From assembly GCF_011045215.1 (NCBI RefSeq), contig NZ_CP049201.1: DNA of 64,000 nt; one strand, 5' to 3'. This document shows, piece by piece, positions 18,877 to 35,466 of this stretch (position 1 is its first letter; each line of letters opens with the position of its first letter). Source of the stretch: Escherichia coli (GTDB lineage Bacteria > Pseudomonadota > Gammaproteobacteria > Enterobacterales > Enterobacteriaceae). Under the pieces are notes generated by a model. It was not told the DNA's origin. It did not search any database and saw only the letters and a list, made by a program, of their open reading frames with translations. A program made the position numbers and the translations under genes.

Positions 18877-18877
18877 A

Positions 18878-20107
18878 TCAGGGCCAACGTTTAATGATGA
18901 TGGATGTATTAATGCCGCCAAAGGCAAAGTTGTTACTCTGCAAAAACTCACAATCAACCTTGCGGGCTTCATGCATGATGTAATCCAGCGCGCCACAATT
19001 CGGGTCTGGTTTATTCAGGTTTAGCGTAGGCGCAAACCAACCTTCGCGCATCATTTGCAGACTCATCCAGGCTTCGAGCGCGCCACAGGCACCAAGCGTA
19101 TGACCAAAATAACTTTTCAGCGAGGAGAGCGGCACATTATCACCGTAAATGGTTGCTGTCGCCAGACTTTCTGCCATATCACCGCGATCGGTCGCCGTAC
19201 CATGCGCTGAAATATAGCCGATATCTTGTGCGCTTAACCCGGCGATTTTCAGCGATTGCTCCATACAATACTGCATGGTTTCGCTCTGCGGCTGGGTAAT
19301 ATGTGCCGCGTCGCAGTTAGTCGCAAAGCCGACGATTTCACCGTAAATGGTCGCGCCGCGCGCTTTGGCGTGCTCCAGTTCTTCGAGAATGAGCGTACCT
19401 GCGCCTTCACCAATCACCAGCCCGTCGCGGTTTTCATCGAACGGTGAAGGTGTGGTTTTCGGCGCATCATTGTGCTGGCTGGTGGCGAAAAGCGTATCAA
19501 ATACCGCTGCTTCTGAAGGACATAACTCTTCGGCACCACCAGCAACCATCACCGTTTGATAACCGTGGCGAATGGCTTCCCACGCATAACCGATTGCCTG
19601 GCTGCCGGAAGTACAGGCGCTGGAGGTTGGGATCACCCGCCCGCGCAGGCCGAAAAAGAGGCCAGTATTAACGGCGGTGGTGTGCGGCATCATCTGCACA
19701 TAGGTGGTGCCAGTGATGTTATTGGTGTGCTTTTCCGTCAGCATGGTGGCGAACTCGCTTACCGGGCCGGTACTGCCGGTCGATGAACCGTACGCAATGC
19801 CCGTTTCGCCGCTGGTTAATATCGGATCGCCAATCAACCCTGCCTGCTCTAACGCCAGCTCGCTGGCACGGGTCGACATTTGCGACACGCGGCCCATCGC
19901 ACGGATACGCTTGCGGGTGTAGTGCTCCGGTAGCGTGAAATCATCAACAGGCGCGCCAAGCAGGGTGTGCAGCCCATCGTAGACCTGCCACTCCGGCATT
20001 TTGCGCACCGCATTTTCATATGCCAGTAAGCGTGCAGAAACGTCCTGCCAGTTTTCACCAAAGGCAGTCACGCCGCCCATTCCTGTAATCACTACGCGAC
20101 GTGTCAT
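18878..20107 (-). CDS. Beta-ketoacyl-ACP synthase (KAS I/II type), last biosynthetic gene of the APE-type cluster
   Basis: 409 aa; Cys-His-His triad contexts (SSACTSG, HGTAT, GHTLGA). By cluster order this would be apeR in the Xenorhabdus nomenclature as I recall it (unverified). Confidence 0.85.
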   Translation of the reverse strand: MTRRVVITGMGGVTAFGENWQDVSARLLAYENAVRKMPEWQVYDGLHTLLGAPVDDFTLPEHYTRKRIRAMGRVSQMSTRASELALEQAGLIGDPILTSGETGIAYGSSTGSTGPVSEFATMLTEKHTNNITGTTYVQMMPHTTAVNTGLFFGLRGRVIPTSSACTSGSQAIGYAWEAIRHGYQTVMVAGGAEELCPSEAAVFDTLFATSQHNDAPKTTPSPFDENRDGLVIGEGAGTLILEELEHAKARGATIYGEIVGFATNCDAAHITQPQSETMQYCMEQSLKIAGLSAQDIGYISAHGTATDRGDMAESLATATIYGDNVPLSSLKSYFGHTLGACGALEAWMSLQMMREGWFAPTLNLNKPDPNCGALDYIMHEARKVDCEFLQSNNFAFGGINTSIIIKRWP

Positions 20108-20835
20108 AACATCCCTCCGTTGATGGAAATAACCTGGCGGGTGACGTAACCCGCAATATCAGACATTAAATAACTGGCAAGCCCGGCAACTTCTTCCGCC
20201 TGGCCCATACGTTTCATGGGGATCATCGACATTGCCTCTTTCAGAGCGCTCTCTTCCATTTCGATCATCCCGGTATCAATAAGCCCCGGCGCGATGCAGT
20301 TGACGGTGATTTTGCGCTTCGCGAGTTCGATAGCCAGCGCTTTTGTTGCGCCGATAATTCCGGCTTTGGCAGCGCTGTAATTCACCTGGCCGCGATTGCC
20401 CATTACGCCGGAAACCGAGGATAGCGTGATGATGCGCCCACCCTGGCGTGCGCCGATCATCGGCATAATGCACGGCTGAATGACGTTGTAGAAACTGTCG
20501 AGGTTGGTGTGGATCACCGCATCCCAGTCGTCATCGCTTAAAGCCGGAAAAGCGGCATCGCGGGCGATCCCGGCGTTACTGACCACGCCGTACCAGGCAC
20601 CGTGTTGCGCGATCTCATGCTCCAGCACTTCCCGACACTGTTCGCGGTTTGCGACGTCGAAACTGAGCAAACGCCCGTTACCCCCATTGGCGACAATGGC
20701 ATTCAGCGTTTCCTGAGCGCCTGTGGCGTCACGGTGATAGTGAACGCCAATGTTAAAGCCGTCTGCCGCCAGTTGGCAGGCGATGGCGCGACCAATGCCT
20801 TTGCTGGCACCAGTAACCAGAACTGAACGACTCAT
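20104..20835 (-). CDS. 3-oxoacyl-ACP reductase (SDR, FabG-like)
   Basis: 243 aa; TGASKGIGRAIA cofactor motif, NAG, YSAAK catalytic motif. Would be apeQ by order (unverified). Confidence 0.85.
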   Translation of the reverse strand: MSRSVLVTGASKGIGRAIACQLAADGFNIGVHYHRDATGAQETLNAIVANGGNGRLLSFDVANREQCREVLEHEIAQHGAWYGVVSNAGIARDAAFPALSDDDWDAVIHTNLDSFYNVIQPCIMPMIGARQGGRIITLSSVSGVMGNRGQVNYSAAKAGIIGATKALAIELAKRKITVNCIAPGLIDTGMIEMEESALKEAMSMIPMKRMGQAEEVAGLASYLMSDIAGYVTRQVISINGGML

Positions 20836-21299
20836 CAGGACGCTCCTTGTTGAAACAGGGTGGTAAGTTCTTCCGCGGTCGGCTGGAAGGTGTTAATGCG
20901 GCCCGTCGCCTCGCCGTCGTTGATGCTGCACTCAAAACTGCCGAAGCGATCGTCCTGCATCAGCAGTTTGACGGTAATGGTCAGCGTCTGGCCTGCGGGC
21001 AGAATGCCAGTGGTGCAAAGCAATTCACGCGCGCCCAGTATCATCCCTAACTCAATACTGTTTTTGCCTTGCTGGTGGCGATGCCAGCCAGACCAGACGC
21101 CGACGGTTTGCGCCATCAGTTCAAGGGCAAACCAGCCAGGGAGATTGCCGTCCGGGTCGAGAAACGGTGCCAGTACGCCACTGGGCGAAACCGTCACGCG
21201 GCACACCGCGCTGTCATCGCTGACGCTCACCACGTCTTCCAGCAGTAACATGGGCGCGTCGTGGGGCAGATAAGCGCCGGGGGATAAATAGTGGCTCAC
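20835..21299 (-). CDS. Hot-dog fold 3-hydroxyacyl-ACP dehydratase (FabA/FabZ-like)
   Basis: 154 aa, hot-dog-fold size and composition; sits between KR and KS genes. Would be apeP by order (unverified). Confidence 0.7.
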   Translation of the reverse strand: MSHYLSPGAYLPHDAPMLLLEDVVSVSDDSAVCRVTVSPSGVLAPFLDPDGNLPGWFALELMAQTVGVWSGWHRHQQGKNSIELGMILGARELLCTTGILPAGQTLTITVKLLMQDDRFGSFECSINDGEATGRINTFQPTAEELTTLFQQGAS

Positions 21300-22474
21300 G
21301 AAACCCTCCCGAGCAGAATGCTGGCGTTATTGCCGCCAAAGGCGAAGGAATTGGACAGGATCACCGGACGTGCCAGCGGCTGTGGTTTTTCGATAATGCC
21401 GCACGGTGGCAGCGTGGGATCGCACGGCGACAGGCTGAAGTCCTGAGCGGGCAGCGGTAAATCACGCTGTAAAATCAACATGCTGATTGCCGCCTCGGTA
21501 ATGCCCGCCGCGCCCAGCGTGTGGCCGGTCAAATGTTTGGTGGAACTGCACGGTACGCGTTCGCCAAACAGGGCGTTAACCACCATTGATTCAATCTGAT
21601 CGTTGAGTTGTGTGGCGGTGCCGTGCAGGTTGATATAGCCGACGTCATCTGGCGTAAGCTGTGCATCGTTCAGCGCCTGATTAATAGCGCGGATCGCTCC
21701 TTCGCCCTGCGGATGCGGGGCTGAAATATGGTAAGCGTCGCTCGATTCACCAACGCCCAGCAACGCGATGGGCTGCGGTTCCCGGGTCAGCAGCATTAGC
21801 CCCGCCCCTTCACCAATGGTGATACCTGCGCGGTCACGACCAAACGGCTGACATAAGGTTGGCGACAGCGATTCGAGGCTGTGAAAACCGTTAATCGGCA
21901 TCCGGCTCAGGGTGTCTGCGCCACCCACAATGGCGGCATCGACCAGCCCCGCTTCGATAAGCCTGCGCCCGCTGATTATCGCTCTGGCGCTGGAAGAGCA
22001 GGCGGTTGAAAGGGTATAGGCCGGGCCGTCGAGCGCCAGCCAGTGGCTGAGAAAACGCGACGGATCGCCGAGTTCCTGTTGCGCGTAGTGCCATGTGGTG
22101 CTCGGCTGCCCGTGGGTGCGCAGGTTAACGTGCGTGTCGCCTTCATGCAGGCCGGAGGTGCTGGTGCCAAGTACAATCGCGATGCGCTCGCGACCATATT
22201 TCGCGATAGCGTCATCAACCTGCGGCTGGATCTGCGCCAGCGCCGCCAGCAGGATCTGATTGTTGCGCGAGCGGTGCGCAGCGAATTTTTCCGGGATAAG
22301 CGGAAGCTCGCCATCCACGCCAGCCAGGACCGCCTGCGGATGCCCCTGCAACCAGCCTGCGCGCGGGCGCATGCCGGGAGCAACACCGCGAGTCAGGTTG
22401 GTTGCGATTTCGTCAAGGTTATTTCCCAGGGCGTTGATCATGCCGACGGCGGAAATATAAATCATATCAGTCAC
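21296..22474 (-). CDS. Beta-ketoacyl synthase (elongating KS)
   Basis: 392 aa; active-site contexts STACSSS, HGTATQ, GHTLGA. Would be apeO by order (unverified). Confidence 0.85.
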   Translation of the reverse strand: MTDMIYISAVGMINALGNNLDEIATNLTRGVAPGMRPRAGWLQGHPQAVLAGVDGELPLIPEKFAAHRSRNNQILLAALAQIQPQVDDAIAKYGRERIAIVLGTSTSGLHEGDTHVNLRTHGQPSTTWHYAQQELGDPSRFLSHWLALDGPAYTLSTACSSSARAIISGRRLIEAGLVDAAIVGGADTLSRMPINGFHSLESLSPTLCQPFGRDRAGITIGEGAGLMLLTREPQPIALLGVGESSDAYHISAPHPQGEGAIRAINQALNDAQLTPDDVGYINLHGTATQLNDQIESMVVNALFGERVPCSSTKHLTGHTLGAAGITEAAISMLILQRDLPLPAQDFSLSPCDPTLPPCGIIEKPQPLARPVILSNSFAFGGNNASILLGRVS

Positions 22475-23051
22475 CTAAGTATTGAATGGTGATGTGGTAT
22501 TTAAAGACATGCTGCTCAATGCTGATTGGCACGCGTTTTCCCTGGCGATTCAGATAGGTGATTTCCGTGACCAGTTTGCCGCTGGCGTTACGCAGCTCGC
22601 GTTTGTCACCGTTGTCGCGAAGTGTCCATCCTGCGGGAAGTTGCGGTTGCCAGGCGCTAATCGGCCAGTGGCTGAGCATCACGTCAGCCAGTACCTGACT
22701 TGCGGGCGGTAACTGTGGGACGACGATGGATTGCTCGGCGCGTAGCCCTTGCGCATCGTAGGTCACCAGAAACAGGCGAATGCCGACCGACGACAGCCCG
22801 GCAAGGGTGATTTTCTGATCGTCGGCGTTAAGCATTACTAGCAGCGACTGGGTGTTGCCGTTGAAGCTGCCGGTTAACAGTTGCTGGGAATTGACGGCGG
22901 GTGAAATCCCCGGTGCCGGCAGCGTGATGCGCGTGCCAGGTTGCAGCCACGCCTGCGGGCGGCCTTCCTGTTCCGGTTGCGAGTGGCTACAGCCGGTGAG
23001 GATAAGCGTAGCGGTCAGGGCGAACGCTCGCCAGAAGGTAGGTTTGATCAT
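22467..23051 (-). CDS. Lipoprotein (DUF3261-like)
   Basis: 194 aa; signal peptide with lipobox (LTGC). Confidence 0.7.
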   Translation of the reverse strand: MIKPTFWRAFALTATLILTGCSHSQPEQEGRPQAWLQPGTRITLPAPGISPAVNSQQLLTGSFNGNTQSLLVMLNADDQKITLAGLSSVGIRLFLVTYDAQGLRAEQSIVVPQLPPASQVLADVMLSHWPISAWQPQLPAGWTLRDNGDKRELRNASGKLVTEITYLNRQGKRVPISIEQHVFKYHITIQYLGD

Positions 23052-25366
23052 TTTTTTGTTCTCTTTTTATCGGGCATAGCCAGCGGCGAAAGCAGGAAGG
23101 CGGTGAAAATACCGCTCACCAGCACAATGCCAAAACTGCTGATGGCCTGGGTGGCGCTGAATACCAGCATTCCCAGCGTCAGCAAGGTGGTGAGCATTGC
23201 CAGTGTGATCGCCAGTAGCGAAGTTAACGGCGTACCGCGCGGATTACTGAAAAACAACGTGTAGTTGATACCGATGCCAAGTACCAGCACCAGCGCCAGC
23301 AGCGAAAAGAGATTCACCGCCTGCCCGCTCATCGCCAGCACCGCCAGACCACAGCCCAGCGAAAGCACCGAAGGCACCAGGCTGATAAGCCCTTTGCGCC
23401 AGCCGAGACGGGCCACTGCGCCGCAGGCAATCACTGCCAGCGCCACCAGCAACAAGCCGGTTAAGACGTAGCGGTAAAGTGCGAACAATTCATCAAAGGT
23501 GCTTTTGCGATCAACCCAGGCAATGCCGCAAGGGTAATATGTGGCGATTTCCTGCATCAACGCGCTACTTTTAACCCCTTCAACCGGCACCAGTACGCCG
23601 CTTTCGCCATTTTCCAGCGTCAGCCACAGCAGACGCCAGCCTTCACTGGCGGGGCTTGCCAGCCATTCATCAACGTTCACTGGCATGGCGTTGAGATCTG
23701 GTTTCACCGCCGTCAGCCCGGCGTTTTGCAGTGCTTTTGTTACCGTCGGGGCCGCCGTTTTCAGCAGGTCTAAATCTTCCTCCTGTCGCGCCAGAGAGTT
23801 CAGCGGAATAGTGCGGTAATTGCTGATAAGACCGTCTTTTTTCGCCTTCTCCAGCGAGGAGGTAAATGTCTCCAGCCGTCCCAATGTTTGCTGTGGGGAG
23901 TCGCCGTAAACCACAAACCATTTTTGATCGACGCTTTGCCCGGTCAGGGCGGTAATGGCTTTCTCCTGGGTCAGAATATGCTGCGGTAGCGCCTGTAACT
24001 GCGAGATATCGTCATCGACGCGCAGCATTGACATCCCCGCCAGCGAAAACAGCGCCAGCGCGACGGGCAGACCCAGCGACAGTTTTTTATTACGCCGCCA
24101 CGCTGCCAGCCAGCGTAGCATCAGCGCCATCGCCGGAACCGGACGCACCGGCAGGCCACGGCACAGCCACGGATGCCAGAACAGGACGGTCAGACAAGAG
24201 GCGCTCAACCCGACGGCGGCAAAAATCGCCATCTGGCGAATGCCTGGGAAGGGGGCGAGCATCATAATCAGATACGCCGCCACGGTGGTGAGCAGCGCCA
24301 GTAGCAAGGCATTGCGTACTTTCGCCAGGCTTTGCCACGGCGAAACGTCGTTGCCGTGCACCATCCGCTCGGTGAGATAATAGAGCGTGTAGTCAGCGGA
24401 AATGCCGATAACGCTCATGCTCATTACCAGCGTCATCAGGTGTAATTCACCGAAAATCAATAAAGTGGCGACCGTTCCCGCCAGCGCGCCGATGCCGATG
24501 GAAATCACGCAAAGCAGCAACGGGCGCAAAGAGCGGAACACCGCCACAATCAGCAATATCACCCCCAGCAGCGTTGCCACGCCCAGGGTTGAGATATCCT
24601 GCTTCGCCTGTTGGCTGGCGTAATCGCTGTAAAACACCGTGCCGCGCGAAAGCAGCTGCGCCTGCGGGTAACGCGTTTTCAGATCCTTTTCCAGCGTATT
24701 CAGGGTCGTGATGAGCTGGTGGGTTTGCTGCATATCAAACGACGATCCCGCCAGTTCACCGTGCAGCAGATACCAGTAGTTGCCCTGGGGATCCTGCGTC
24801 ACCAGCCAGCCGTCCATCAGCCGCAAACGCTGGCCGTTTTTCGCCATCGCCAGCTGCGAGCCGCGCATTAACATCAGCGGATCGTTTTGCAGCTCCTTGC
24901 CGCTTACCCCGGAGAACGCAGAATAAAGCTGGGAGAGGATCCACTGCGCCTGCGCTTCGCCGCCGTTTTGCAGGCGCGCGCGGGTGTCGGGGTCAATCAG
25001 GCCGTTGCGGTGCTGCCAGAAAAACGCTCCCCACGCTTGCTGGCTGGCGGCATCCATTGGCCCTTTAACGTCGCCGAGCGCAGCGGATTTTTGCAGCAGC
25101 GTCAGCCACTCCTGAGCGACCAAAGGATTAGCCTCTTTACCGGGGCTGACCAGCCACACCAGTTGGCGGTCAAGACGCTGCATAAAGCCGTCATTCAGCG
25201 CCGGAGGAATATCGCCCATCGTCTGTTTGGGTAACATAGCCAGCACGCTACTGTTCAGCCGTGATTGCGGCAGCAGGATCAGCAACGCCGCCGCCATGAC
25301 CAGGCAGACTAGCCCCCATAACAGCGCGGGGCGTTTACTGGGCGGCAAAACGTTGGCGTTCGTCAT
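23048..25366 (-). CDS. MMPL/RND-superfamily membrane exporter
   Basis: 772 aa; two blocks of transmembrane helices each following an extracytoplasmic domain, typical of MMPL-type lipid exporters. Confidence 0.75.
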   Translation of the reverse strand: MTNANVLPPSKRPALLWGLVCLVMAAALLILLPQSRLNSSVLAMLPKQTMGDIPPALNDGFMQRLDRQLVWLVSPGKEANPLVAQEWLTLLQKSAALGDVKGPMDAASQQAWGAFFWQHRNGLIDPDTRARLQNGGEAQAQWILSQLYSAFSGVSGKELQNDPLMLMRGSQLAMAKNGQRLRLMDGWLVTQDPQGNYWYLLHGELAGSSFDMQQTHQLITTLNTLEKDLKTRYPQAQLLSRGTVFYSDYASQQAKQDISTLGVATLLGVILLIVAVFRSLRPLLLCVISIGIGALAGTVATLLIFGELHLMTLVMSMSVIGISADYTLYYLTERMVHGNDVSPWQSLAKVRNALLLALLTTVAAYLIMMLAPFPGIRQMAIFAAVGLSASCLTVLFWHPWLCRGLPVRPVPAMALMLRWLAAWRRNKKLSLGLPVALALFSLAGMSMLRVDDDISQLQALPQHILTQEKAITALTGQSVDQKWFVVYGDSPQQTLGRLETFTSSLEKAKKDGLISNYRTIPLNSLARQEEDLDLLKTAAPTVTKALQNAGLTAVKPDLNAMPVNVDEWLASPASEGWRLLWLTLENGESGVLVPVEGVKSSALMQEIATYYPCGIAWVDRKSTFDELFALYRYVLTGLLLVALAVIACGAVARLGWRKGLISLVPSVLSLGCGLAVLAMSGQAVNLFSLLALVLVLGIGINYTLFFSNPRGTPLTSLLAITLAMLTTLLTLGMLVFSATQAISSFGIVLVSGIFTAFLLSPLAMPDKKRTKK

Positions 25367-25940
25367 CGGTCAGTTGCGCTGGCGTCAGTTGATGTTGGGT
25401 AAGAGCAATATCGGTGCGATCGCCCTGTTTATCATTAAGTTGAATGCTCTCCAGATAGGTTTTCCCGGCGAGATCGATGGTGTTGAAAATTTTATCCAGC
25501 GGCGTGGTGGTCGGCGTCAGGCGCAGCGTCCAGCGGCCTTCGCCTTTGTCAGCAAATTCGACGCGGAAGTTTTGTTCCAGCACTTTGCGATCGGCCTGGA
25601 ACAGCGCGCGCAGCAGGTGGTTAAACTGGAACATCTGCGGGTTGTTTTCTGCCGTGATGATTTGCGGCGGCTGACCGTTGATCACCTGCACCATGCGTTT
25701 ATCGTCCAGTAATAGCTGCATGGGGAATGGTGAGGTTTGATCCCACAACAGCCCCTGGTCGCGGGCGATCAACATCTGGCCCTGAGATCGCAGCGGCTGC
25801 GGCAGATCTTTAATCGTCCGGGTTTGATCGAAATGGGCGCGGATCACCGGTTGTTCGGTAAAGCGTTGCTGAAGATCGTCCAGGGTCAGGGCGCTCACAA
25901 ACGGGCTAATCAGCAGCGCCAGCAGCGGTAAAAATTTCAT
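25335..25940 (-). CDS. LolA-like outer-membrane lipoprotein carrier
   Basis: 201 aa with signal peptide; LolA-family length and composition; 32-bp overlap with the MMPL gene. Confidence 0.65.
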   Translation of the reverse strand: MKFLPLLALLISPFVSALTLDDLQQRFTEQPVIRAHFDQTRTIKDLPQPLRSQGQMLIARDQGLLWDQTSPFPMQLLLDDKRMVQVINGQPPQIITAENNPQMFQFNHLLRALFQADRKVLEQNFRVEFADKGEGRWTLRLTPTTTPLDKIFNTIDLAGKTYLESIQLNDKQGDRTDIALTQHQLTPAQLTDDERQRFAAQ

Positions 25941-26359
25941 GGTTTGACTCCCATGCGTTCAAACAGAATATCGGGGCTGACAAAGCACAGTTCGCGACTT
26001 TGCTCGTCGACCGCGACCTGAATGGTGTATCCGGTGGTGGCGCGTTTGCCCGTTTCGGCATCGAAAATCTGATAGCCAATCCGCAGACGGTTTTCGAACT
26101 CTTCGATATGCGCACGCACGCGGATGCGTTGCTCAAAGGTGAGGGCGTGGCGATATTTCACCCGCGCATCGACCACTGGCCACAAATAACCGGACTCTTT
26201 CATCTGCCGATAGCCGTAATTGAACTGGTTGAGCAGCGCCTCGCGAGCCACTTCAAAGTAGCGAAAATAGTTACCGTGCCAGGCCACGCCCATCATATCG
26301 ACGTCGTGAAAGGGAATGGTCAGCTCGACTTCAGCGGTAAATCGGGGATCGTTAAGCAC
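25937..26359 (-). CDS. Acyl-CoA/acyl-ACP thioesterase (4HBT / YbgC-like hot-dog)
   Basis: 140 aa; 4HBT-type N-terminal motif (IPFHDVDMMGVAWHGNYFRYFE). Confidence 0.8.
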   Translation of the reverse strand: MLNDPRFTAEVELTIPFHDVDMMGVAWHGNYFRYFEVAREALLNQFNYGYRQMKESGYLWPVVDARVKYRHALTFEQRIRVRAHIEEFENRLRIGYQIFDAETGKRATTGYTIQVAVDEQSRELCFVSPDILFERMGVKP

Positions 26360-26362
26360 CCT

Positions 26363-28039
26363 TTACTCCTTGTCCTGAATTTCCGGCAGTTGCCAGAAAT
26401 CGAAAAAATTAAACCAGTCGAGGGGCGACTGGAGCGCGTAATGTTCCAGACGCGCGGCGTAGTGGTCGATAGCGTTTTGCAGCGCCTGCTGGCGTTCGCC
26501 ACGCGGCAGTTGCAGCGGGTCGGCAAAGCTTTCGCAGTGAATATGCAGCTTGCCGTGCTGGCGTAGGGCGAAAATCAGATTCACCGGGCAGCGCAAAATA
26601 GACGCGAGAATAAACGGTCCCTGTGGGAAAGGCGCAGGCTGGCCCATAAACGAACTCCAGCAGACGCGCCAGTCGCCGCCGCGTTGCGGGGTGACGGCGA
26701 TACGGTCACCGACAATCGCCACCCATTCCCCGTTATCCAGCTTCTCTTTCAGCAGGATGGCGGTTTCTGGGCCGATATCTGTTACCGGCATCAGGTTAAT
26801 GCCTGCCTGAGGAGCCATCTCCTGCATTATCTGTTTAAAGCGTTGGGCGTTTTCGCTAAACACCAGCGCGTTAATGGTTTTGTAGCCCTGAATTTTTGCC
26901 AGCGCCCGGCACACTTCCACATCGCCAAGATGCGAGGCCAGCAGCAATTTGCCGCGCGGATCGCGGACGTCAAGCGCCGCTTCTGCGCCTGGCGCAAACA
27001 GCACATCACGCCCCAGTTGTAGCTCGCCGCGCCAGCTGGCGATTTTGTCGAGCATGGCATTACCGAAACGTAGAAAGTGCTGATAGCTGTTGAGTTTTGC
27101 CGCCTGTGGTTGATGCTGTCGTACACGGGCGAGCCAGTCTTGCGACGCTTTGCGCGCACGAGAAGCAGTGAGCCAGTAGACGCCCACCACCGGGTAAAGC
27201 AGCGCGCTAAACGCCGTTCTTCCCAGCAGACGCCAGACCAGCAGCATCAGGCGCATTCCCCATAACCCTTTCACCTCACTCTGCCGCGCCCAGTGGCTGG
27301 AAGAACGGCGCATCAGCAGTGAAGGAATACGCGGCAACATGCCGAAAAATAGACGCGTGTGCATGAGCGAGATGCGGACGTTATCTTTCAGGGCATCAAA
27401 ATGCGAAAGCCCGTCCAGCGGATAGGTGACGCGGGTCGGCACGAAATAACTGGTGTTTCCCTGCCAGTAGAGGCGCACCATCACTTCGGTGTCGAAATCC
27501 ATCCGCTTGCCGATGGTGGCGTGTTTTGCCAGTTGCAGCGTTGGCGCAACCGGATAAACGCGAAAGCCGCACATGCTGTCTTTCAGTTGCAGGGAGAGCG
27601 TTTCGATCCATACCCAGACGTGAGTGACCCAGCGCCCATACAGCCGTGAGCGGGGGATGGAGTCATCGTAAATTGGCTGGCCGGAGATCAACGCCGCAGG
27701 GTGTTGTTCAGCGAGTGCCAGCAGTTTGGGGATATCTTCAATCGCATGTTGACCATCAGCATCTACCTGCACCGCATGGCTGAACCCCGCGTCTGCCGCT
27801 GCCTGTAAGCCGCGCATCACCGCCGCGCCTTTACCTGCGTTTTCTGCCAGGCGGATTAAGGTCACGCCAGGCTGTTCGCTAATCAGATTATCCAGTTGCT
27901 GTTGCGTGGCGGCATCGCTGCCGTCGTCCACCACAATACAAGGCAGATTAAATGGCTTAAGACGCGCCAGCACGCCCGGCATCATCGCGCCGTGGTTGTA
28001 GCAGGGGATCAACACGCAGGGAGAAAAGTTTACCGACAT
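26363..28039 (-). CDS. Two-domain protein: N-terminal family 2 glycosyltransferase fused to a C-terminal acyltransferase-like domain
   Basis: 558 aa; GT2 motifs (VVDDGSD, DxD-type VQVDADGQH) in the first ~230 aa, followed by membrane-associated and acyltransferase-like segments. Confidence 0.7.
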   Translation of the reverse strand: MSVNFSPCVLIPCYNHGAMMPGVLARLKPFNLPCIVVDDGSDAATQQQLDNLISEQPGVTLIRLAENAGKGAAVMRGLQAAADAGFSHAVQVDADGQHAIEDIPKLLALAEQHPAALISGQPIYDDSIPRSRLYGRWVTHVWVWIETLSLQLKDSMCGFRVYPVAPTLQLAKHATIGKRMDFDTEVMVRLYWQGNTSYFVPTRVTYPLDGLSHFDALKDNVRISLMHTRLFFGMLPRIPSLLMRRSSSHWARQSEVKGLWGMRLMLLVWRLLGRTAFSALLYPVVGVYWLTASRARKASQDWLARVRQHQPQAAKLNSYQHFLRFGNAMLDKIASWRGELQLGRDVLFAPGAEAALDVRDPRGKLLLASHLGDVEVCRALAKIQGYKTINALVFSENAQRFKQIMQEMAPQAGINLMPVTDIGPETAILLKEKLDNGEWVAIVGDRIAVTPQRGGDWRVCWSSFMGQPAPFPQGPFILASILRCPVNLIFALRQHGKLHIHCESFADPLQLPRGERQQALQNAIDHYAARLEHYALQSPLDWFNFFDFWQLPEIQDKE

Positions 28040-28413
28040 AGGCGGATCTTCCCGCTACTGGCGGTGTGGCGGGCGTCACCGTCGTGACGCTGATAGCTAA
28101 AGCTCAGAATCTGGCGATCTTCCTGCCAGTTAAGCGTGAGCGTGACGCGGTTTTCCGGCAGCAACGGAGACTGGAATTTTATGTTCTGAATGGAGTGAAA
28201 ACGCCAGCCAGGCGCGAGCAGGGCAAGCGCGTAACTCATGGCCCAGTCGATTTGCGCAACTCCTGGGAGTAATGGTTGCACGGCAAAATGGCCGCGAAAC
28301 CAGAACAGATCTGCCCTGAGATGCAAAACAATCTCAAGGTGATTCGCTTGTGCCTGATGGCGCTCGATTTCATGGGGCTTCATGAAATAACTCCTGTAAT
28401 TGCGCATAGACAC
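28030..28413 (-). CDS. FabZ/FabA-like hot-dog dehydratase
   Basis: 127 aa; FabZ-type motif (FRGHFAVQPLLPGV). The start may lie at an internal Met (MKPHE...). Confidence 0.75.
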   Translation of the reverse strand: MSMRNYRSYFMKPHEIERHQAQANHLEIVLHLRADLFWFRGHFAVQPLLPGVAQIDWAMSYALALLAPGWRFHSIQNIKFQSPLLPENRVTLTLNWQEDRQILSFSYQRHDGDARHTASSGKIRLCR

Positions 28414-29731
28414 GCTTGTTCATACTGTTTACTGGCATTTCATCAATAACGCGCCAGTAACGCGGAATGGCAACCGGCTCCAGCATCGGGCGCAGTAATC
28501 GCCGCCAGGCTATTTCCTGGCTATGCCCGCCGCCGTGCTGCCATTGCAGGCGAGCTTCGTCATCCAGCACCAGCAAAACGCCAATGCACTGACGCCCGCC
28601 GCGTGTAACAGGAACTGCCGCCGCCTCGCGAATACCGTCCAGTGCCAGCAGACGTTGTTCCACTTCCTGGAGTGAAATGCGTTTTTCTTCAATTTTAACG
28701 ATGCGTCCGCGACGCCCCATCAGATGGAACTGGCCGTCTTCGCTAAACTGTAAGATATCGTCGAGTAACAGGCCGTTATCTTCCGCCATCAGCGGTGAAA
28801 AGAGACGAAAAGAATCACCTTCGGCCTGGAACTGCATACCTGGGAGGGGTAGCCAGCGGCGTTGCTCTTGTTCGCGGTAGCGCCAGGCGATGACGCCGGT
28901 TTCCGTGCTGCCGTAGATTTCATCAGGCCAGACGCGCAGCCAGCTTGCGGTGTGTTGTACATCCTGCCACGGCAGCTCACCGCCAGCAGAGAGAAGCACC
29001 TGAACGGGTGGCGGAGAAAGCTGGGTATCCAGGCGCTTCAAAAATGCCGGGCTGCTGATGAAGATATAGCGATGCTGATGACTCAACGCGGCAAACTGTT
29101 CGACATACCAGAGCATGGCGGCGTGCAGCGGTAATCCCAACGCCATGGGCAGGAAAACGCGAAAAGTCAGGCCGTACAAATGCTGCGGCAATACGGAACC
29201 GACGACACGACAACCCGCCAGACGTGCGCCTAATCGTTCAGCCAGCAGTTCTGCTTCACGATCCAGCAAATGAACAGGTTTAATCACCCGTTTCGGCTGT
29301 CCCGTGGAACCGGAGGTAAACAGCTCGATAAAAGCCTCTGGCGCTATAGCGGAAAAGGTGAAGGATTGTGTCGCGATTTGTGGAGAACTTGCTACCAACA
29401 GCAATGAACCTTGCCAGTTAAGTTCGCTGTCGCTAAGCACACCATCAAAAAGTTCACGTTGCTCGTTAAGCTGGATAACACGGTTATGCCCCGGAAGCAC
29501 CGGCGTTTTTCCGGCGTGTAGCGTGGCGAGCAGGGCAACGATAAACAGATAGCTGTTCTCAAAGCACAGCGCCCAGCGTTCACCTGGCTGTTGCTGCAAG
29601 CGGCAGATAAGTTGCGCGACATCGTGACGCAAATCGCCCAGCGTCCAGGTGCTTTCGTCCAGCCACGCAATGGGCGTGTCATCAGGGCGTGGCGCAGTCA
29701 GCCAGCGTGCAAGCGGTAAGGTCTGCTTCAT
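28370..29731 (-). CDS. AMP-dependent synthetase/ligase (adenylating enzyme; candidate aryl starter-unit activator)
   Basis: AMP-binding motif TSGSTGQPK. Start placed at the Met that forms an ATGA overlap with the upstream gene's stop (plus strand 29728-29731 reads tcat); the ORF track extends to 29770. Confidence 0.8.
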   Translation of the reverse strand: MKQTLPLARWLTAPRPDDTPIAWLDESTWTLGDLRHDVAQLICRLQQQPGERWALCFENSYLFIVALLATLHAGKTPVLPGHNRVIQLNEQRELFDGVLSDSELNWQGSLLLVASSPQIATQSFTFSAIAPEAFIELFTSGSTGQPKRVIKPVHLLDREAELLAERLGARLAGCRVVGSVLPQHLYGLTFRVFLPMALGLPLHAAMLWYVEQFAALSHQHRYIFISSPAFLKRLDTQLSPPPVQVLLSAGGELPWQDVQHTASWLRVWPDEIYGSTETGVIAWRYREQEQRRWLPLPGMQFQAEGDSFRLFSPLMAEDNGLLLDDILQFSEDGQFHLMGRRGRIVKIEEKRISLQEVEQRLLALDGIREAAAVPVTRGGRQCIGVLLVLDDEARLQWQHGGGHSQEIAWRRLLRPMLEPVAIPRYWRVIDEMPVNSMNKRVYAQLQELFHEAP

Positions 29732-30309
29732 GCGCGATCTCTTTTCATCACCTGACGGCGCACCAGCCATTCACCAGCCATTAATGTTCCCATCAACAAA
29801 TAAGCAATCATGCCGTTCCAGGCGGTCCATAACGACATATCGGCATAAAGCGCGGTAAAGAGGGCAATTCCACCGTTGATGATGAAAAAGCCGCACCAGA
29901 TTTGCGTGACGCGGCGGGTATAGCGCATGCCCTTTTCCGGCAGATCTGGCTCCTGCAAACGCGCCAGCCGCTCAACTATCGGCATTGCCGACCACAGCGA
30001 ACCGCCAAAAACCGCCAGCATGACCGCGTTAACCACTACCGGGTAAAACAGCAGTAGCTGGTGTGTTTTCAACAGAACGCTGGCGACACATAATGCGATG
30101 CCCACGACAGCGACGATTTGTGTGACGACCTGGAGCGGCCCCGCCTGGCGACGGGTCTGGCGCAGGCGCAACAAAAGCAGCAACGCTATTAGCGGCAACA
30201 GCCAGTGCAGGCCGTTATGCGCTAAGCCAAACCAAATCACAAACGGCCAGGCGAGCAGCAATAATCCAGTCAGCAGCTTAATCATCGGTAGCGAGCGAAT
30301 GCCCGACAT
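29728..30309 (-). CDS. Small polytopic membrane protein of unknown function
   Basis: 193 aa, about 5 predicted hydrophobic helices; embedded in the operon with coupled stop/start. Confidence 0.6.
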   Translation of the reverse strand: MSGIRSLPMIKLLTGLLLLAWPFVIWFGLAHNGLHWLLPLIALLLLLRLRQTRRQAGPLQVVTQIVAVVGIALCVASVLLKTHQLLLFYPVVVNAVMLAVFGGSLWSAMPIVERLARLQEPDLPEKGMRYTRRVTQIWCGFFIINGGIALFTALYADMSLWTAWNGMIAYLLMGTLMAGEWLVRRQVMKRDRA

Positions 30310-30313
30310 CAGA

Positions 30314-30565
30314 TCAGGCTTCTTGTAGCAGGCGTTCTACAGCCTCGACGACATCCTGGACTGTACGCACTGCTTTAAACTCTTCCGGCTTGATTTTCTT
30401 ACCGGTTTTCTTTTGCAGGTGCACAATCATGTCAACGGCGTCGATGCTGTCCAGTTCCAGATCTTCGTACAGGCGCGCTTCAGGTTTGATGTCCTGCGGA
30501 TCGATTTCAAACAGCTTAACCAGCAGGGCTGAGACTTCCTGATAGACGGTTTGTTGTTCTGTCAT
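30314..30565 (-). CDS. Acyl carrier protein
   Basis: 83 aa; phosphopantetheine attachment motif (LELDSIDAVD). Confidence 0.85.
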   Translation of the reverse strand: MTEQQTVYQEVSALLVKLFEIDPQDIKPEARLYEDLELDSIDAVDMIVHLQKKTGKKIKPEEFKAVRTVQDVVEAVERLLQEA

Positions 30566-30576
30566 GATGGCTTTCC

Positions 30577-30834
30577 TCAGGCACGTTGCGCAGCAATGAA
30601 AGAGGCCAGAGTGGCGACGGAGAAAAAGTGCTGACGCATCTCTTCGCTTTCCGCAGAGAGCACGATGCCGTACTCATTTTTTACTGCCAGTCCCAGTTCC
30701 AGGGCATCGATAGAGTCCAGCCCTAAACCGTCGCCAAACAGCGGCGCGTCGGTATCGATATCATCAGGCGTCAACTCGTCCAGATTGAGGGTGCTGATGA
30801 TGAGGTTTTTAATTTCCAGATAAAGCGCTTGCAT
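30577..30834 (-). CDS. Acyl carrier protein (second, divergent copy)
   Basis: 85 aa; attachment motif (LGLDSIDALE). Confidence 0.85.
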   Translation of the reverse strand: MQALYLEIKNLIISTLNLDELTPDDIDTDAPLFGDGLGLDSIDALELGLAVKNEYGIVLSAESEEMRQHFFSVATLASFIAAQRA

Positions 30835-31630
30835 TATTTATTCCTGAGAGAGGTAAACAACCTTGTTGTAATTGAAGCAAAAGATGCCGGTTTAACTGCC
30901 TTGCTGCCAGCGCCGGTTCTTGTGAAGTTGCATCGTAAAATTTATTGATTTCAACCCGACCATGGACTGCAACCGTAAAAAACGGCCGGTCAGGTGGAAC
31001 GTCATACCATTTACTTTGTTTATCCAGCAGATGCTCGCTACAGCCGATCGTCACGATGCGTAAATCGCTGGCACAGCGCACGGCAATATTCGCCGCCCCG
31101 CGCTGCAGCGTCATTTTTTCACCGGGCTTCGTTCGCGTGCCTTCGGGGAAAATCAGGATAGTGTCACCCTGTGCCAGTCGCTGTTGGCAGCGGGGTAACA
31201 GGGTTTCAGCTTCGCTGTTGATTAAATAATCTGCCGCCCGCACGACGCCGCCAAGAAAAGGATTTTTTAACAGCGCGCTTTTCACCAGGCAGTCAGTTTC
31301 TGGCATGACTGACGCCAGCAGCACGTAATCGATCAGCGTGGGATGATTGGCTACGACGAGGCAACCGCGTTCCTGACGTAAAATTTCAGCGCCATCAATA
31401 CGATAATCCAGCACGCCAAGCCCTTTCGCGACAGTTAAAAACAGGCGAAAACTGGCGGCAATGCTGCGACGCGCCAAACGACGGCGGCGGGAAGTATCCC
31501 ACACCAAAACTAACAATATGTTAAACCACACGACAGAAAGCAGCAGGCCGCCGAGACCAAACAGGGCAAAACATAACCCGGTCATGACCAGTCGCCAGGT
31601 CCACTCCAGACGTGACATCAGCTTACTCAT
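30809..31630 (-). CDS. Lysophospholipid acyltransferase (PlsC-like)
   Basis: HX4D acyltransferase motif (NHPTLID). Start placed at the Met giving an ATGA overlap with the upstream gene (plus strand 31627-31630 reads tcat); the ORF track extends to 31648. Confidence 0.8.
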   Translation of the reverse strand: MSKLMSRLEWTWRLVMTGLCFALFGLGGLLLSVVWFNILLVLVWDTSRRRRLARRSIAASFRLFLTVAKGLGVLDYRIDGAEILRQERGCLVVANHPTLIDYVLLASVMPETDCLVKSALLKNPFLGGVVRAADYLINSEAETLLPRCQQRLAQGDTILIFPEGTRTKPGEKMTLQRGAANIAVRCASDLRIVTIGCSEHLLDKQSKWYDVPPDRPFFTVAVHGRVEINKFYDATSQEPALAARQLNRHLLLQLQQGCLPLSGINNASALSGN

Positions 31631-32352
31631 CTGTGGCTCCAGCGCCATTGCACGCGCTCGCCAGGCAGTGAAAATGTGTCTACATTTTGTAAATAGTGCT
31701 GTAAAAACAACATGCTTTGCGGCAGTGTTGTTTCATTGCCCGCAATGGCTGACTGCGTTTCACATTGCCAGTCATCGCCAGCTTCAATCACCAGCGCGAC
31801 GGCGTACGGCCAGGTCGGCATTTCTGCAGGCAGTTGTGGGTGATAAAACTCGGGCAGAAAACCGTCAAAATCGACCATCAGCACGCGCTGGTATCCCGCT
31901 TGTAACAGGCTAAGCACTTCACACAAACCTTGCTGGAAAGTGTCGCGACCAGCAGAAAGCGATGACGAAACGATCGGCTGTTTGGCCGCAATGGTCAGGT
32001 TACCCACGGAAGAGTTGTGTACTGAAAGTGCAAAGTCGGTCGGAGAAAGCGCCTGTTCGGTTGCCAGTGCATGAACAATGCGGTAATTGCGCTCCAGTTC
32101 GCCATGACGACTGGTATACAAAACGGCGTCTGGCTGATGGCGGCGTAGCATTGCCAGACCGCATTCAACAGCCAGTTTGCTGCCTGAACTGAGGCGGCGG
32201 GCGGTCATCATTGGCAGTTCACTTAATTTTGCCAACGGCGCGGCAGGGTCAATCGCCCACGGCTGGCGCGACCATGCTTGCCATTGCTGCGCTTCGCTAA
32301 GTCCAGGCGCCAGTGCCTGCCAGTCGGTAATATTTAATGTAAATTTCATCAA
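31627..32352 (-). CDS. Short ketosynthase-like protein (chain-length-factor-like KS partner)
   Basis: 241 aa with KS-like sequence but much shorter than a full KS and no clear Cys-His-His triad (SVHNSSVG where the active-site Cys block would be). Confidence 0.65.
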   Translation of the reverse strand: MMKFTLNITDWQALAPGLSEAQQWQAWSRQPWAIDPAAPLAKLSELPMMTARRLSSGSKLAVECGLAMLRRHQPDAVLYTSRHGELERNYRIVHALATEQALSPTDFALSVHNSSVGNLTIAAKQPIVSSSLSAGRDTFQQGLCEVLSLLQAGYQRVLMVDFDGFLPEFYHPQLPAEMPTWPYAVALVIEAGDDWQCETQSAIAGNETTLPQSMLFLQHYLQNVDTFSLPGERVQWRWSHR

Positions 32353-32389
32353 CGCGCGCCCGCGGTAAACCCAAATTATTAAGTGACGA

Positions 32390-33457
32390 TTATTTCTTTT
32401 GGCATATCAAAAGTGTATGCCCAACGCCTAAATTATCGTGGCGCTCTGCTACCTGGAATCCTGCTTTATTCAGATAGTCGTAAAATTTCTCTGCACTATA
32501 GAAACGGCTGTTACCGTTTGCCATGCAGGTAAAATAAAGTGAGGACGCGTTCAGGCTAAACGATGCTGCTTCAAACCGCTGCGCATCCCAGAACAACTCC
32601 ATGATGCAAACTTTTGCGCCAGGCTTCATTACGCTGGCAATTTTGCTGAGTATGCTAATTATTTGTTCGGGTGAAAAACAGTCTAAAAATTGGCTCATCC
32701 ACCAGATATCAGCCTCGCCCGGTAATGGGGCATCGCTTAGCATATCCACCGCATGGAAATCTATGCGATCAGAAAAACCTGCATTCGCGATATTTTCTTT
32801 CGCTAGTACGATTTGTTGTGGCAGATCTAATAACGTCACGGCGATGTTTTCATTGTATTTGCAGCAACGCAAAGCCCACTTACCCGTATTGCCGCCTACA
32901 TCGTACAATGTTGTGGGGTTGTTGGCGAATACATAAGGCAGTGCGGCGTTAAATGCGCCATCTGAATAGTAATGATCAAACGCAAACCAGCTTTCACGAG
33001 CGGCGTCTGGTAATTGCGAAAGTGCCGGATATATCGTCGACCAGTCGCCAAATACTTTTAACCCGGAAGGTTTTCCTTCATTGAGTGAATCGGCGAGGAA
33101 GAAGAGCCCCTGGTAACAGACATCCTGGGTGAAATCCATATTCACGCGAGTCATAGTGTCATGCAGGAGGTAATGACCGATTTTCGCCAGGTAATAAATT
33201 CCCTCTTTACAGGTAATAATTCGCCCGCTTAAGCCCATATCTAACAGAACGCTGGCAGCATATTCGTTGATATGGCTATGTTCGGTGATATCAGCCAGCG
33301 TTGCGCCATGTTTGCCTTGCCGATCCAGATATGAAAGTACACCCGCATTACGTAGGCAGAGTGCTGTTTGAAAAAGCATAGGGGCAAAGGCAATGCGTTG
33401 AGCTTCGGTAATCGCATCCAGTGCGCTAAGAGAATCCTGTTCGTACATGTTGGGCAC
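32390..33457 (-). CDS. SAM-dependent O-methyltransferase (class I)
   Basis: 355 aa; SAM-binding motif (LYDVGGNTGKWA) within a C-terminal Rossmann-like domain. Would be apeB by order (unverified). Confidence 0.8.
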   Translation of the reverse strand: MPNMYEQDSLSALDAITEAQRIAFAPMLFQTALCLRNAGVLSYLDRQGKHGATLADITEHSHINEYAASVLLDMGLSGRIITCKEGIYYLAKIGHYLLHDTMTRVNMDFTQDVCYQGLFFLADSLNEGKPSGLKVFGDWSTIYPALSQLPDAARESWFAFDHYYSDGAFNAALPYVFANNPTTLYDVGGNTGKWALRCCKYNENIAVTLLDLPQQIVLAKENIANAGFSDRIDFHAVDMLSDAPLPGEADIWWMSQFLDCFSPEQIISILSKIASVMKPGAKVCIMELFWDAQRFEAASFSLNASSLYFTCMANGNSRFYSAEKFYDYLNKAGFQVAERHDNLGVGHTLLICQKK

Positions 33458-33516
33458 AACCTGTTAAGAGGGAATTAAATTATTATCGGACCGCAACGGC
33501 CCGACTTTAGGAAGAA

Positions 33517-33906
33517 TTATAAATCTGCGCCCGCTGACAAATTCAGTTGAATATCTTTGTCGAGATTGCGGACCCAGCGATTGTAGTTTTTATGAATTTG
33601 TCCGCCTGACGCTTGTAGGTTCTGGCTATTTTCATAATTGATATCGTAGCTGGATGCCGTGTAGTTAATGCGTATTTCCGCTGAATGATCGCGTGACTGT
33701 TGACGTGCTTTAATTATGCCTTGTCCGGCTTCGGACATAATCCATTTGCGTTCAACGCCAGCTTTCAGAATCGCTTTTTTCACTTGTTCCTGGGTATGAC
33801 CAGCGCTGACGGTTGAGTGAACCTGATCAATTGGCGCAGTACGCGCGCAACCTGCTAAAGCACCCACAACAGCAATAGCCGCAAACCATTTCATGTAATG
33901 TCTCAT
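33517..33906 (-). CDS. Small lipoprotein of unknown function leading the cluster
   Basis: 129 aa; signal peptide plus lipobox (LAGC); the real start may be the internal Met at MKWFAAI. Confidence 0.6.
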   Translation of the reverse strand: MRHYMKWFAAIAVVGALAGCARTAPIDQVHSTVSAGHTQEQVKKAILKAGVERKWIMSEAGQGIIKARQQSRDHSAEIRINYTASSYDINYENSQNLQASGGQIHKNYNRWVRNLDKDIQLNLSAGADL

Positions 33907-34236
33907 TAGAACCCCATTAAAGTATTGTTTTTACGAGTAAAGCAAGATTTAACTGTAATTGCTGGCATCACTATTCTTTATTTAGAGAAAAAATTACTTG
34001 TGAGATAAGTCAGTAAGTGCACATCAGAGTAAAAATCTCTGAAATGACTAAATTACTGCCAGCAGGGACCAACTATAAGTGAGTGAGAAAAATGAGGCAA
34101 TAAAAATAACACAATGTTATCAGTGCATTCTTTGAGAAGGATTTAATCGCTATTCGGCGTTTATATATATTTGACTTAAGGAATGGTTTTTTTAAATTAA
34201 TTTTCTGAATAATGTTTCATCATTTCCTCAAATCAA

Positions 34237-34265
34237 ATGGCCACTGTTAGATAAACGGTGGCCAT
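34237..34265 (-). terminator. Hairpin downstream of yhhT (candidate terminator)
   Basis: 8-bp inverted repeat ATGGCCAC / GTGGCCAT with 13-nt loop, 20 bp after the yhhT stop. Confidence 0.4.
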
Positions 34266-34285
34266 TGCCTGCTCAGGAGGTGCTA

Positions 34286-35335
34286 TTAACCCGGTAACCG
34301 ACTTTTCGGTCTGCCCGGCCCCAGTAAAATCGCCAGTTTGCTACCGCCTTTGGTGGTTTCCATCCAGATTTTACACACGCTGGTTAATGGCACCGAAAGT
34401 AGCATCCCTACCGGGCCGAGCAGCCATCCCCAAATTAACAATGAAAGAAATACCACCATGGTGGACATCCCCAGGCGATGGCCCATCATCCGTGGTTCTA
34501 AAATATTGCCGATAACCATATGGACAACTAAAAACAATGCGCCGACCAGAATACATTCGTAAACACCATTAAACAGCAGCACCTGAATCATTGGCGGTAC
34601 GGCGGAAATTACCGCGCCGATATTGGGCACGTAGTTGAGCAAAAACGCCAGTACTGCCCACATCAGCGCAAACTGCACCCCCATCAGCTCCAGCCCCAGC
34701 CAGACGATGACACCTGTCCATAAACTGAGTAGCGTCTTCAATGCAAGATAGTGCGAAACACCTTTTAAGGCGCGGTGTAGTCCGGCGATATGAATCTGTG
34801 GATTATTCAATGCAAAACGCATTTTGTAAGGGACGTGGCGCACTTCAAACAGCATAAAAACTACGGTCATCACCAGCAAAAGCACGCTCGCCATTGCCCC
34901 GGAAAGCCCGGTCATTAGCGCTGTGGTGAAGGTAACCACTTTTTCCGAGTCCATCCGCTGCAGCATTCGCTCCGGCGACATATGCAAATTAAGAAAAGGC
35001 AACATCTCCTGCAATTTAAAAAGTTTGCGCGTCAGCTCCTTATTAAACTTCGGCAGCATAGAGATAAATTCGTTAAACGATGCCGCCAGTACGCCGACCA
35101 GCGCGGTTAGTGTGATCAGCATCACCACCACCACAATCGTAATGGCAACGGGGCGTTTTACTCCCCGTCGAATAAACCAGGTAACGAGCGGGTTGAGGAC
35201 GATGGCAAAAAACAGCGCCAGTAACAGCTGCACAATGATATCTGCCGCTGCGTGAATGCCCGCGAGGATCACTACCAGCGAGGCCAGCTTGAGCAGAATG
35301 TGCATGCCCGTTTTATCGGGTTGAGGGGTTTCCAT
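34286..35335 (-). CDS. yhhT: AI-2E/PerM-family membrane transporter
   Basis: 349-aa product starting METPQPDKTG; the ORF track adds a 27-codon upstream extension. Confidence 0.88.
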   Translation of the reverse strand: METPQPDKTGMHILLKLASLVVILAGIHAAADIIVQLLLALFFAIVLNPLVTWFIRRGVKRPVAITIVVVVMLITLTALVGVLAASFNEFISMLPKFNKELTRKLFKLQEMLPFLNLHMSPERMLQRMDSEKVVTFTTALMTGLSGAMASVLLLVMTVVFMLFEVRHVPYKMRFALNNPQIHIAGLHRALKGVSHYLALKTLLSLWTGVIVWLGLELMGVQFALMWAVLAFLLNYVPNIGAVISAVPPMIQVLLFNGVYECILVGALFLVVHMVIGNILEPRMMGHRLGMSTMVVFLSLLIWGWLLGPVGMLLSVPLTSVCKIWMETTKGGSKLAILLGPGRPKSRLPG

Positions 35336-35466
35336 TGGGGCTTCCTTGTGACTTTTTGTATTAAGTGTAGCGGGAGTCACGCCAGCAATATTCTGATTCT
35401 TACTGCTGATTTTCACGTCAGCACGTGGTAAAAATGAAACACTGTTGTAAAAATGTGGTGATCCTC

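Follow-up and report, generated by a model that had tools for sequence, protein, structure and literature searches.

How is a polyene pigment joined to its membrane anchor, and which enzyme decides what that anchor looks like? The question is raised by a 558-codon open reading frame (ORF) in a stretch of Escherichia coli DNA 64,000 nucleotides long (RefSeq assembly GCF_011045215.1, contig NZ_CP049201.1), here called the window. It lies on the minus strand, starts with ATG and belongs to an aryl polyene (APE) cluster, a kind of biosynthetic gene cluster that has been counted among the most widely distributed in Gram-negative bacteria. An earlier note on this DNA had read its product as a single protein in which a glycosyltransferase family 2 (GT2) part is followed by a distinct, membrane-associated acyltransferase-like part, and had proposed that the polyene is transferred onto a glycosylated or glycerolipid anchor. 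Here we establish that the ORF is the published gene apeJ, that its product consists of two separable modules of different fold with conserved catalytic residues, and that the gene is strictly linked to the ape cluster. Since ApeJ is proposed to join the pigment to the membrane anchor, it would be the enzyme that sets the head group.

Identity of the gene and its published role

The ORF can be equated with ApeJ, known from earlier work on the E. coli APE cluster, because the published quantitative PCR primers for apeJ of strain CFT073 (c1194) match it, at 26856-26876 without mismatch and at 26729-26748 with one mismatch, both sites lying within 26363-28039 in convergent orientation. The position between apeI and apeK in an ape cluster and the combined GT2 and acyltransferase architecture are likewise those of ApeJ. 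In E. coli TB06052, the closest strain, whose chromosome is collinear with the window at 98-99% identity, a gene of the same length occupies the syntenic position and is annotated by RefSeq as ‘glycosyltransferase family 2 protein’. Of 5426 complete E. coli genomes, 823 (about 15%) carry apeJ DNA; they gave 824 matching records, and in 814 of these the identity is 95-99%. The ORF is a genuine gene and is conserved. Its constant length and invariant catalytic residues led us to reject a chance ORF or a pseudogene. We likewise rejected a pseudo-enzyme domain, since neither active site varies across alpha-, beta- and gammaproteobacteria.

The product structure and the deletion phenotypes are taken from the literature. 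Johnston et al. (2021, PMC8253772) describe c1194 of CFT073 as ‘apeJ, glycosyltransferase/acyltransferase’ and apeD as ‘lysophospholipid acyltransferase’. In their E. coli deletions of apeJ and apeD partial pigmentation is kept and late intermediates accumulate, and they proposed that the two enzymes together put the polyene onto a glycolipid-type anchor. In Xenorhabdus doucetiae, Grammbitter et al. (2020, bioRxiv 10.1101/2020.12.19.423268) solved the product, which has a glycerol-phosphate-N-acetylgalactosamine (GalNAc) backbone with the aryl polyene esterified to O6 of GalNAc, a conjugated C26:5 fatty acid at sn-2 and, in addition, a saturated acyl chain. Deletion of apeJ in that organism leads to accumulation of a doubly acylated glycerol-3-phosphate (myristoyl/palmitoyl-cFA-G3P). 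The authors proposed a ‘bifunctional glycosyl/acyltransferase ApeJ’ that attaches GalNAc first and then esterifies this sugar with the APE carried by ApeE, and assigned the transfer of the aryl polyene to its acyltransferase domain. A search for later work on the APE lipid returned this preprint alone.

The X. doucetiae structure agrees with the expectation of the earlier note that the polyene is finally bound to a glycosylated glycerolipid and not left as a free acid. The separate PlsC-like acyltransferase that the note had seen at 30809-31630 is apeD; its product matches PF01553 with 70.8 bits (cut-off 23) and carries an HX4D motif (HPTLID, residue 102, at 31328-31345) and PEGTR at residue 168. 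The note had drawn this enzyme into the polyene transfer; in the preprint ApeD is assigned to the second chain, the conjugated C26:5 fatty acid at sn-2, and not to the aryl polyene. The bifunctional role of ApeJ is already in the literature, and the present analysis contributes detail only, namely a PatA/LpxM-like half with His370/Asp445, a lipid-phosphate GT2 half without a hairpin, and forms that are split, fused or further fused to ApeH and ApeI.

Two modules in one polypeptide

The N-terminal module (Table 1) combines a GT-A fold with a DXD metal/nucleotide-sugar motif. PF00535 matches the product at residues 8-131 with 74.2 bits, above the curated Pfam cut-off of 23.3, in line with the GT2 reading of the earlier note. 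Across 47 fused homologues (38-84% identity) the residues D39, K70, D93, D95, Q97, H98, R132 and D183 are invariant throughout. The best NCBIfam match is the polyprenyl-phospho-GalNAc synthase PpgS (E=3e-14), at a level far from equivalence (53 bits against a cut-off of 370), and the ArnC equivalog is missed as well (24.6 bits against 529). Searched against solved structures, the sequence of the module finds only lipid-phosphate glycosyltransferases, that is DPMS (E=7e-7), ArnC and GtrB; in the alignments D93-A-D95-G-Q-H lies opposite DADLQH in DPMS and DADLQN in ArnC. No C-terminal transmembrane helices follow the GT-A domain: the module ends at about residue 245, much like the stand-alone GT2 enzyme of 256 residues described below. 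The module has no transmembrane hairpin and misses every equivalog cut-off, so that classing it with the polyprenyl-phosphate glycosyltransferases would be unjustified.

The C-terminal module had to be assigned by a longer route. A Pfam scan of its 315 residues (244-558) gave no match even at E<=10, so that PF03279 was not reached directly; phmmer against the PDB returned matches at chance level only, and the NCBIfam PatA model matched weakly (E=8.6e-4, 18.4 bits against a cut-off of 209). With the direct searches empty, the assignment had to rest on a family profile and on the predicted structure. A word-indexed homologue search yielded only relatives of 82-99% identity, useless for a profile, and an exhaustive representative search supplied the diversity. 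Searching exhaustively with the C-terminal part alone gave 3010 relatives, comprising proteins of about 550-600 residues matched at residues ~250-560 and stand-alone proteins of about 305-335 residues; the latter mark the module as an independent domain. PF03279 (Lip_A_acyltrans) is matched by 48 of the 56 aligned sequences (the query and 55 stand-alone homologues; best E=2.9e-19), and the family profile finds Acinetobacter baumannii LpxM (5kn7) in the PDB with E=1e-6. Homology to the PF03279 family is in this way reached through profile and fold, the latter resembling PatA. The acyltransferase-like C-terminal part claimed by the earlier note is borne out, although the Pfam annotation suggested there as a check recovers the GT2 part alone.

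The alignments also locate a candidate active site. H370-L-G-D-V-E375 of ApeJ falls onto HFGTWE of LpxM (H122 to E127; 5knk is the structure of the LpxM E127A mutant), and D445 is aligned with LpxM D192, the hydrogen-bond partner of H122. Among all 103 sequences, fused and stand-alone, H370, G372, D445, R446 and G474 are invariant, and an acidic residue, E or D, occupies position 375 in 102 (47/47 fused, 55/56 stand-alone). ApeJ has both the HX4(D/E) motif of the catalytic histidine and an acidic partner in block 3; in PatA the corresponding catalytic pair is H126 and E200, the latter again in block 3. H370 and D445 are therefore identifiable as the predicted catalytic dyad of the acyltransferase module.

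An AlphaFold2 model of ApeJ, built from the alignment of the 47 fused homologues, has a mean predicted local distance difference test score (pLDDT) of 89.4. In its N-terminal domain it resembles DPMS, ArnC and GtrB, in its C-terminal domain PatA and LpxM. Foldseek of the model against the PDB places PatA first (E=3.6e-11, target template modelling score 0.71), followed by GtrB, ArnC and DPMS. A single non-GT fold, the outcome that the earlier note had set against its own reading, was rejected, as two clearly distinct folds lie on either side of a low-confidence linker. This linker (residues 246-257) coincides with the gene boundary found in a natural split version. In that metagenomic ape cluster (L002, Logan SRR32456190 contig, 9234-10981), whose gene order is otherwise the same as in E. 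coli, the GT2 enzyme (256 residues, 56% identical to ApeJ residues 3-245) and the acyltransferase (326 residues, 47% identical to residues 249-558) are encoded by adjacent genes with a 4-nucleotide overlap. At the other extreme, a protein of 1185 residues (P0127) fuses AMP-binding (ApeH-like), ApeI, GT2 and acyltransferase domains.

Regarding membrane association, ApeJ contains no strong transmembrane segment: within residues 216-300 no 19-residue window exceeds a Kyte-Doolittle value of 1.4. Hydrophobicity is moderate over residues 258-292, with a maximum of 1.37, where a hydrophobic or amphipathic helix pair (residues 256-291) is found. Because stand-alone acyltransferases carry the same pair, it is assigned to the acyltransferase module. 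The helix pair makes the ‘membrane-associated’ C-terminal part of the earlier note plausible, and the association is likely interfacial, as in PatA and LpxM.

A proposed two-step scheme and its alternatives

The fold-level relatives of both modules, lipid-phosphate GT2 enzymes on one side and PatA on the other, fit the chemistry of the published product, which makes the two-step scheme of Grammbitter et al. the best explanation. We regard it as probably correct, with D93/D95 as the catalytic centre for glycosyl transfer and H370/D445 as that for acyl transfer. ApeJ would be one polypeptide whose two catalytic modules act in succession at the cytoplasmic face of the inner membrane. The PlsC-type enzyme ApeD would first acylate lyso-phosphatidate at sn-2 to give diacyl-glycerol-3-phosphate. 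The GT2 module of ApeJ would then move an N-acetylhexosamine (GalNAc in Xenorhabdus) from a nucleotide sugar onto the lipid phosphate, an acceptor of the kind used by DPMS, GtrB, ArnC and PpgS, yielding hexosamine-1-phosphate-diacylglycerol. Subsequently the LpxM/PatA-type module, through His370 and Asp445, would transfer the aryl polyene from the carrier ApeE to the sugar 6-OH, and ApeM, ApeL and ApeN would export the APE lipid to the outer membrane. The order of these steps, the donor substrates and the likeness of the E. coli product to that of Xenorhabdus are what we infer.

The comparison with characterized enzymes shows where the scheme follows precedent and where it departs from it. DPMS (5mlz), GtrB (5ekp), ArnC (9bhc) and PpgS, the closest relatives of the N-terminal domain in sequence and structure, have the DAD(G/L)QH motif in common with it. 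They glycosylate a lipid phosphate monoester, a reaction that would give the sugar-1-phosphate-lipid linkage of the APE product; their acceptor is polyprenyl phosphate, whereas diacyl-glycerol-3-phosphate is proposed for ApeJ. PatA, the phosphatidylinositol mannoside acyltransferase of Mycobacterium (5f2t, 7ojt), acylates the mannose 6-OH in phosphatidylinositol mannosides, that is O6 of a hexose on a phosphoglycerolipid. Its identity to ApeJ is only about 15-18%, its donor is palmitoyl-coenzyme A and not, as proposed for ApeJ, an aryl polyene bound to acyl carrier protein (ACP), and it is a stand-alone protein, unlike ApeJ. LpxM and LpxL, the best match in terms of sequence profile, take their acyl group from acyl-ACP; LpxM transfers it to a hydroxyacyl chain of lipid A, and the E. 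coli ApeJ sequence itself lies below Pfam detection for this family.

Several points weigh against the scheme. GtrB, ArnC and DPMS possess a C-terminal transmembrane hairpin that is absent from the N-terminal module. Orthology to X. doucetiae ApeJ rests on shared nomenclature and on the cluster synteny described in the papers, that protein being absent both from the 80 loci kept in our genome scan and from the named cluster members. The anomeric configuration adds to this list. DPMS-type GT2 enzymes are known as inverting enzymes, and from UDP-alpha-GalNAc a beta product is expected. In X. doucetiae the sugar-phosphate linkage is alpha (alpha-GalNAc-1-phosphate; bioRxiv 10.1101/2020.12.19.423268). 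This conflicts with simple inversion from a UDP-alpha-sugar and is not what enzymes of the DPMS/GtrB/ArnC/PpgS type lead one to expect; an alpha sugar-1-phosphate from a DPMS-like GT2 requires retention or another non-canonical mechanism. The supply of the sugar is a further difficulty. The K-12 derivative DH1 does not synthesise GalNAc, no epimerase is encoded in the APE cluster, and Top10 is a host that we take to be K-12-derived as well. E. coli Top10 carrying the ape cluster nonetheless makes the mature lipid, as Johnston et al. (2021, PMC8253772) found. Taken together, the missing GalNAc in DH1 and the mature lipid in a K-12-derived host mean that the sugar of the E. coli head group may differ from GalNAc. 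For the E. coli lipid, a 2026 preprint still speaks only of ‘an anchor molecule’.

These difficulties lead to variants of the scheme. The GT module could be a lipid-phosphate glycosyltransferase in which phosphatidate has replaced polyprenyl phosphate as the acceptor and whose product is alpha-linked, the E. coli enzyme could use a sugar other than GalNAc, or both; we hold this to be a minor possibility. Similarly, the enzyme logic could be kept and the chemistry changed, through a different donor (e.g. UDP-GlcNAc), net retention or transfer of a sugar-1-phosphate. This too appears rather unlikely to us, since by sequence only inverting lipid-phosphate GT2 enzymes are matched, with DADGQH as in DPMS and ArnC, and since the apeJ deletion accumulates a phosphate-bearing intermediate, as expected for direct glycosylation of a phosphate. 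Anything unexpected would have to come from the alpha anomer or from the supply of UDP-GalNAc in E. coli.

Two more distant explanations take one of the modules at its family name. The GT2 module might be a true polyprenyl-phosphate glycosyltransferase that makes an undecaprenyl-phosphate sugar for a periplasmic modification, with the acyltransferase acting on another acceptor. All of its closest relatives in sequence and structure (DPMS, ArnC, GtrB, PpgS) do use polyprenyl phosphate; the explanation is nevertheless very improbable given the widely missed equivalog cut-offs, the absent hairpin, an APE cluster with neither a GT-C transferase nor a flippase, and a published product that bears its sugar on glycerol phosphate. 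Alternatively, the acyltransferase module might attach the polyene to lipid A or a lipopolysaccharide precursor, as LpxL and LpxM do with their acyl chains. Lipid A was raised as a possible anchor by Johnston et al. (2021, PMC8253772), and the C-terminal domain does belong to the family of lipid A secondary acyltransferases. The chance of this being correct seems equally slight, as the Xenorhabdus anchor is a glycerophospho-GalNAc and not lipid A, the fold is matched best by PatA, which acylates a sugar O6 on a phosphoglycerolipid, and the permanent fusion or adjacency to a GT2 enzyme argues for a dedicated sugar acceptor. The two-step scheme, in which ApeJ glycosylates the lipid phosphate and then acylates the sugar, offers in D93, D95, H370 and D445 clean targets to separate the addition of the sugar from the acylation.

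Cluster context and conservation

The overlap of apeI with apeJ (28030-28039) and the spacing between apeJ and apeK (26359-26365) are consistent with translational coupling along the operon. Upstream of apeJ lie apeA-apeH, including apeD, two carrier proteins, apeG (COG4648) and apeH (adenylating enzyme), and then apeI; downstream follow apeK, apeL (LolA-like), apeM (MMPL/RND), apeN (DUF3261) and apeO-R, and then acpT and nikABCDE-nikR. At 18289-34000 of the window, yhhT and acpT-nikA are seen to flank the cluster. Compared with the clusters of E. coli CFT073 (c1194) and X. doucetiae, the gene, its position between apeI and apeK and the two-domain description are the same. The copy in the window is distinguished by acpT and nikA as its neighbours and by its strain, to which TB06052 is closest, and no functional difference is evident.

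Table 1. Coordinates of apeJ, its modules and motifs, and of associated ape genes in the window
Feature	Position	Strand	Evidence or remark
apeJ, 558-residue bifunctional glycosyl/acyltransferase	26363..28039	-	ORF; stop codon 26363-26365
GT2 (GT-A fold) glycosyltransferase module, residues 1-245	27305..28039	-	
DXD motif D93-A-D95 (inside DADGQH)	27755..27763	-	translation check
Inter-domain linker, residues 246-257	27269..27304	-	block pLDDT 53-64; residues 254-257 <50
LpxL/LpxM/PatA-type (PF03279-like, LPLAT) acyltransferase module, residues 249-558	26366..27295	-	
HX4E motif H370-L-G-D-V-E375 (predicted catalytic His)	26915..26932	-	conservation, LpxM alignment
D445-R446 (block 3; predicted partner of catalytic His)	26702..26707	-	invariant in 103 aligned sequences
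apeI, dehydratase	28030..28413	-	PF22818 ApeI-like, E=2.1e-39; 3' end overlaps apeJ start by 10 nucleotides
apeK, thioesterase	25937..26359	-	PF13279, E=1.1e-16; GTG start 3 nucleotides after apeJ stop
apeD, PlsC-type lysophospholipid acyltransferase	30809..31648	-	PF01553, E=1.3e-19; RefSeq start equivalent to 31630
Whole APE cluster apeA-apeR, with apeJ embedded	18878..33906	-	family scans, RefSeq syntenic annotation, conserved order

The association of apeJ with this cluster extends well beyond E. coli. A scan with one genome per species found 560 ApeJ relatives, from which 80 loci (79 distinct) of gamma-, beta- and alphaproteobacteria were kept for a survey of their neighbourhoods. Other ape genes surround the apeJ relative in all 79, in the near-universal order C-D-E-F-G-H-I-J-K-L-M-(N)-O-P-Q-R. 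Among them apeD is present in 72, while tblastn detects apeA in 29, apeB in 22 and apeN in 47. The usual arrangement is a co-directional operon; unlike it, a proteobacterial metagenome-assembled genome (L068) and a Rhizobiales isolate (L075) have apeJ on the strand opposite to the other detected ape genes.

Some further features of the window were observed. G+C is 0.47-0.49 over apeA, apeB and the adjacent yhhT side (window 32001-36000), against 0.55-0.58 over apeD-apeR. The acpT gene that adjoins the cluster encodes a phosphopantetheinyl transferase. AcpT reportedly serves the two carrier proteins of this island; a literature search on AcpT and O-island 138 returned nothing relevant. Outside the cluster, a HicA/HicB type II toxin-antitoxin pair was recognized at window position ~6370-7000 by collinearity with E. 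coli TB06052, in a stretch between yhhJ and a phosphotransferase system/aldolase sugar-utilisation cluster.
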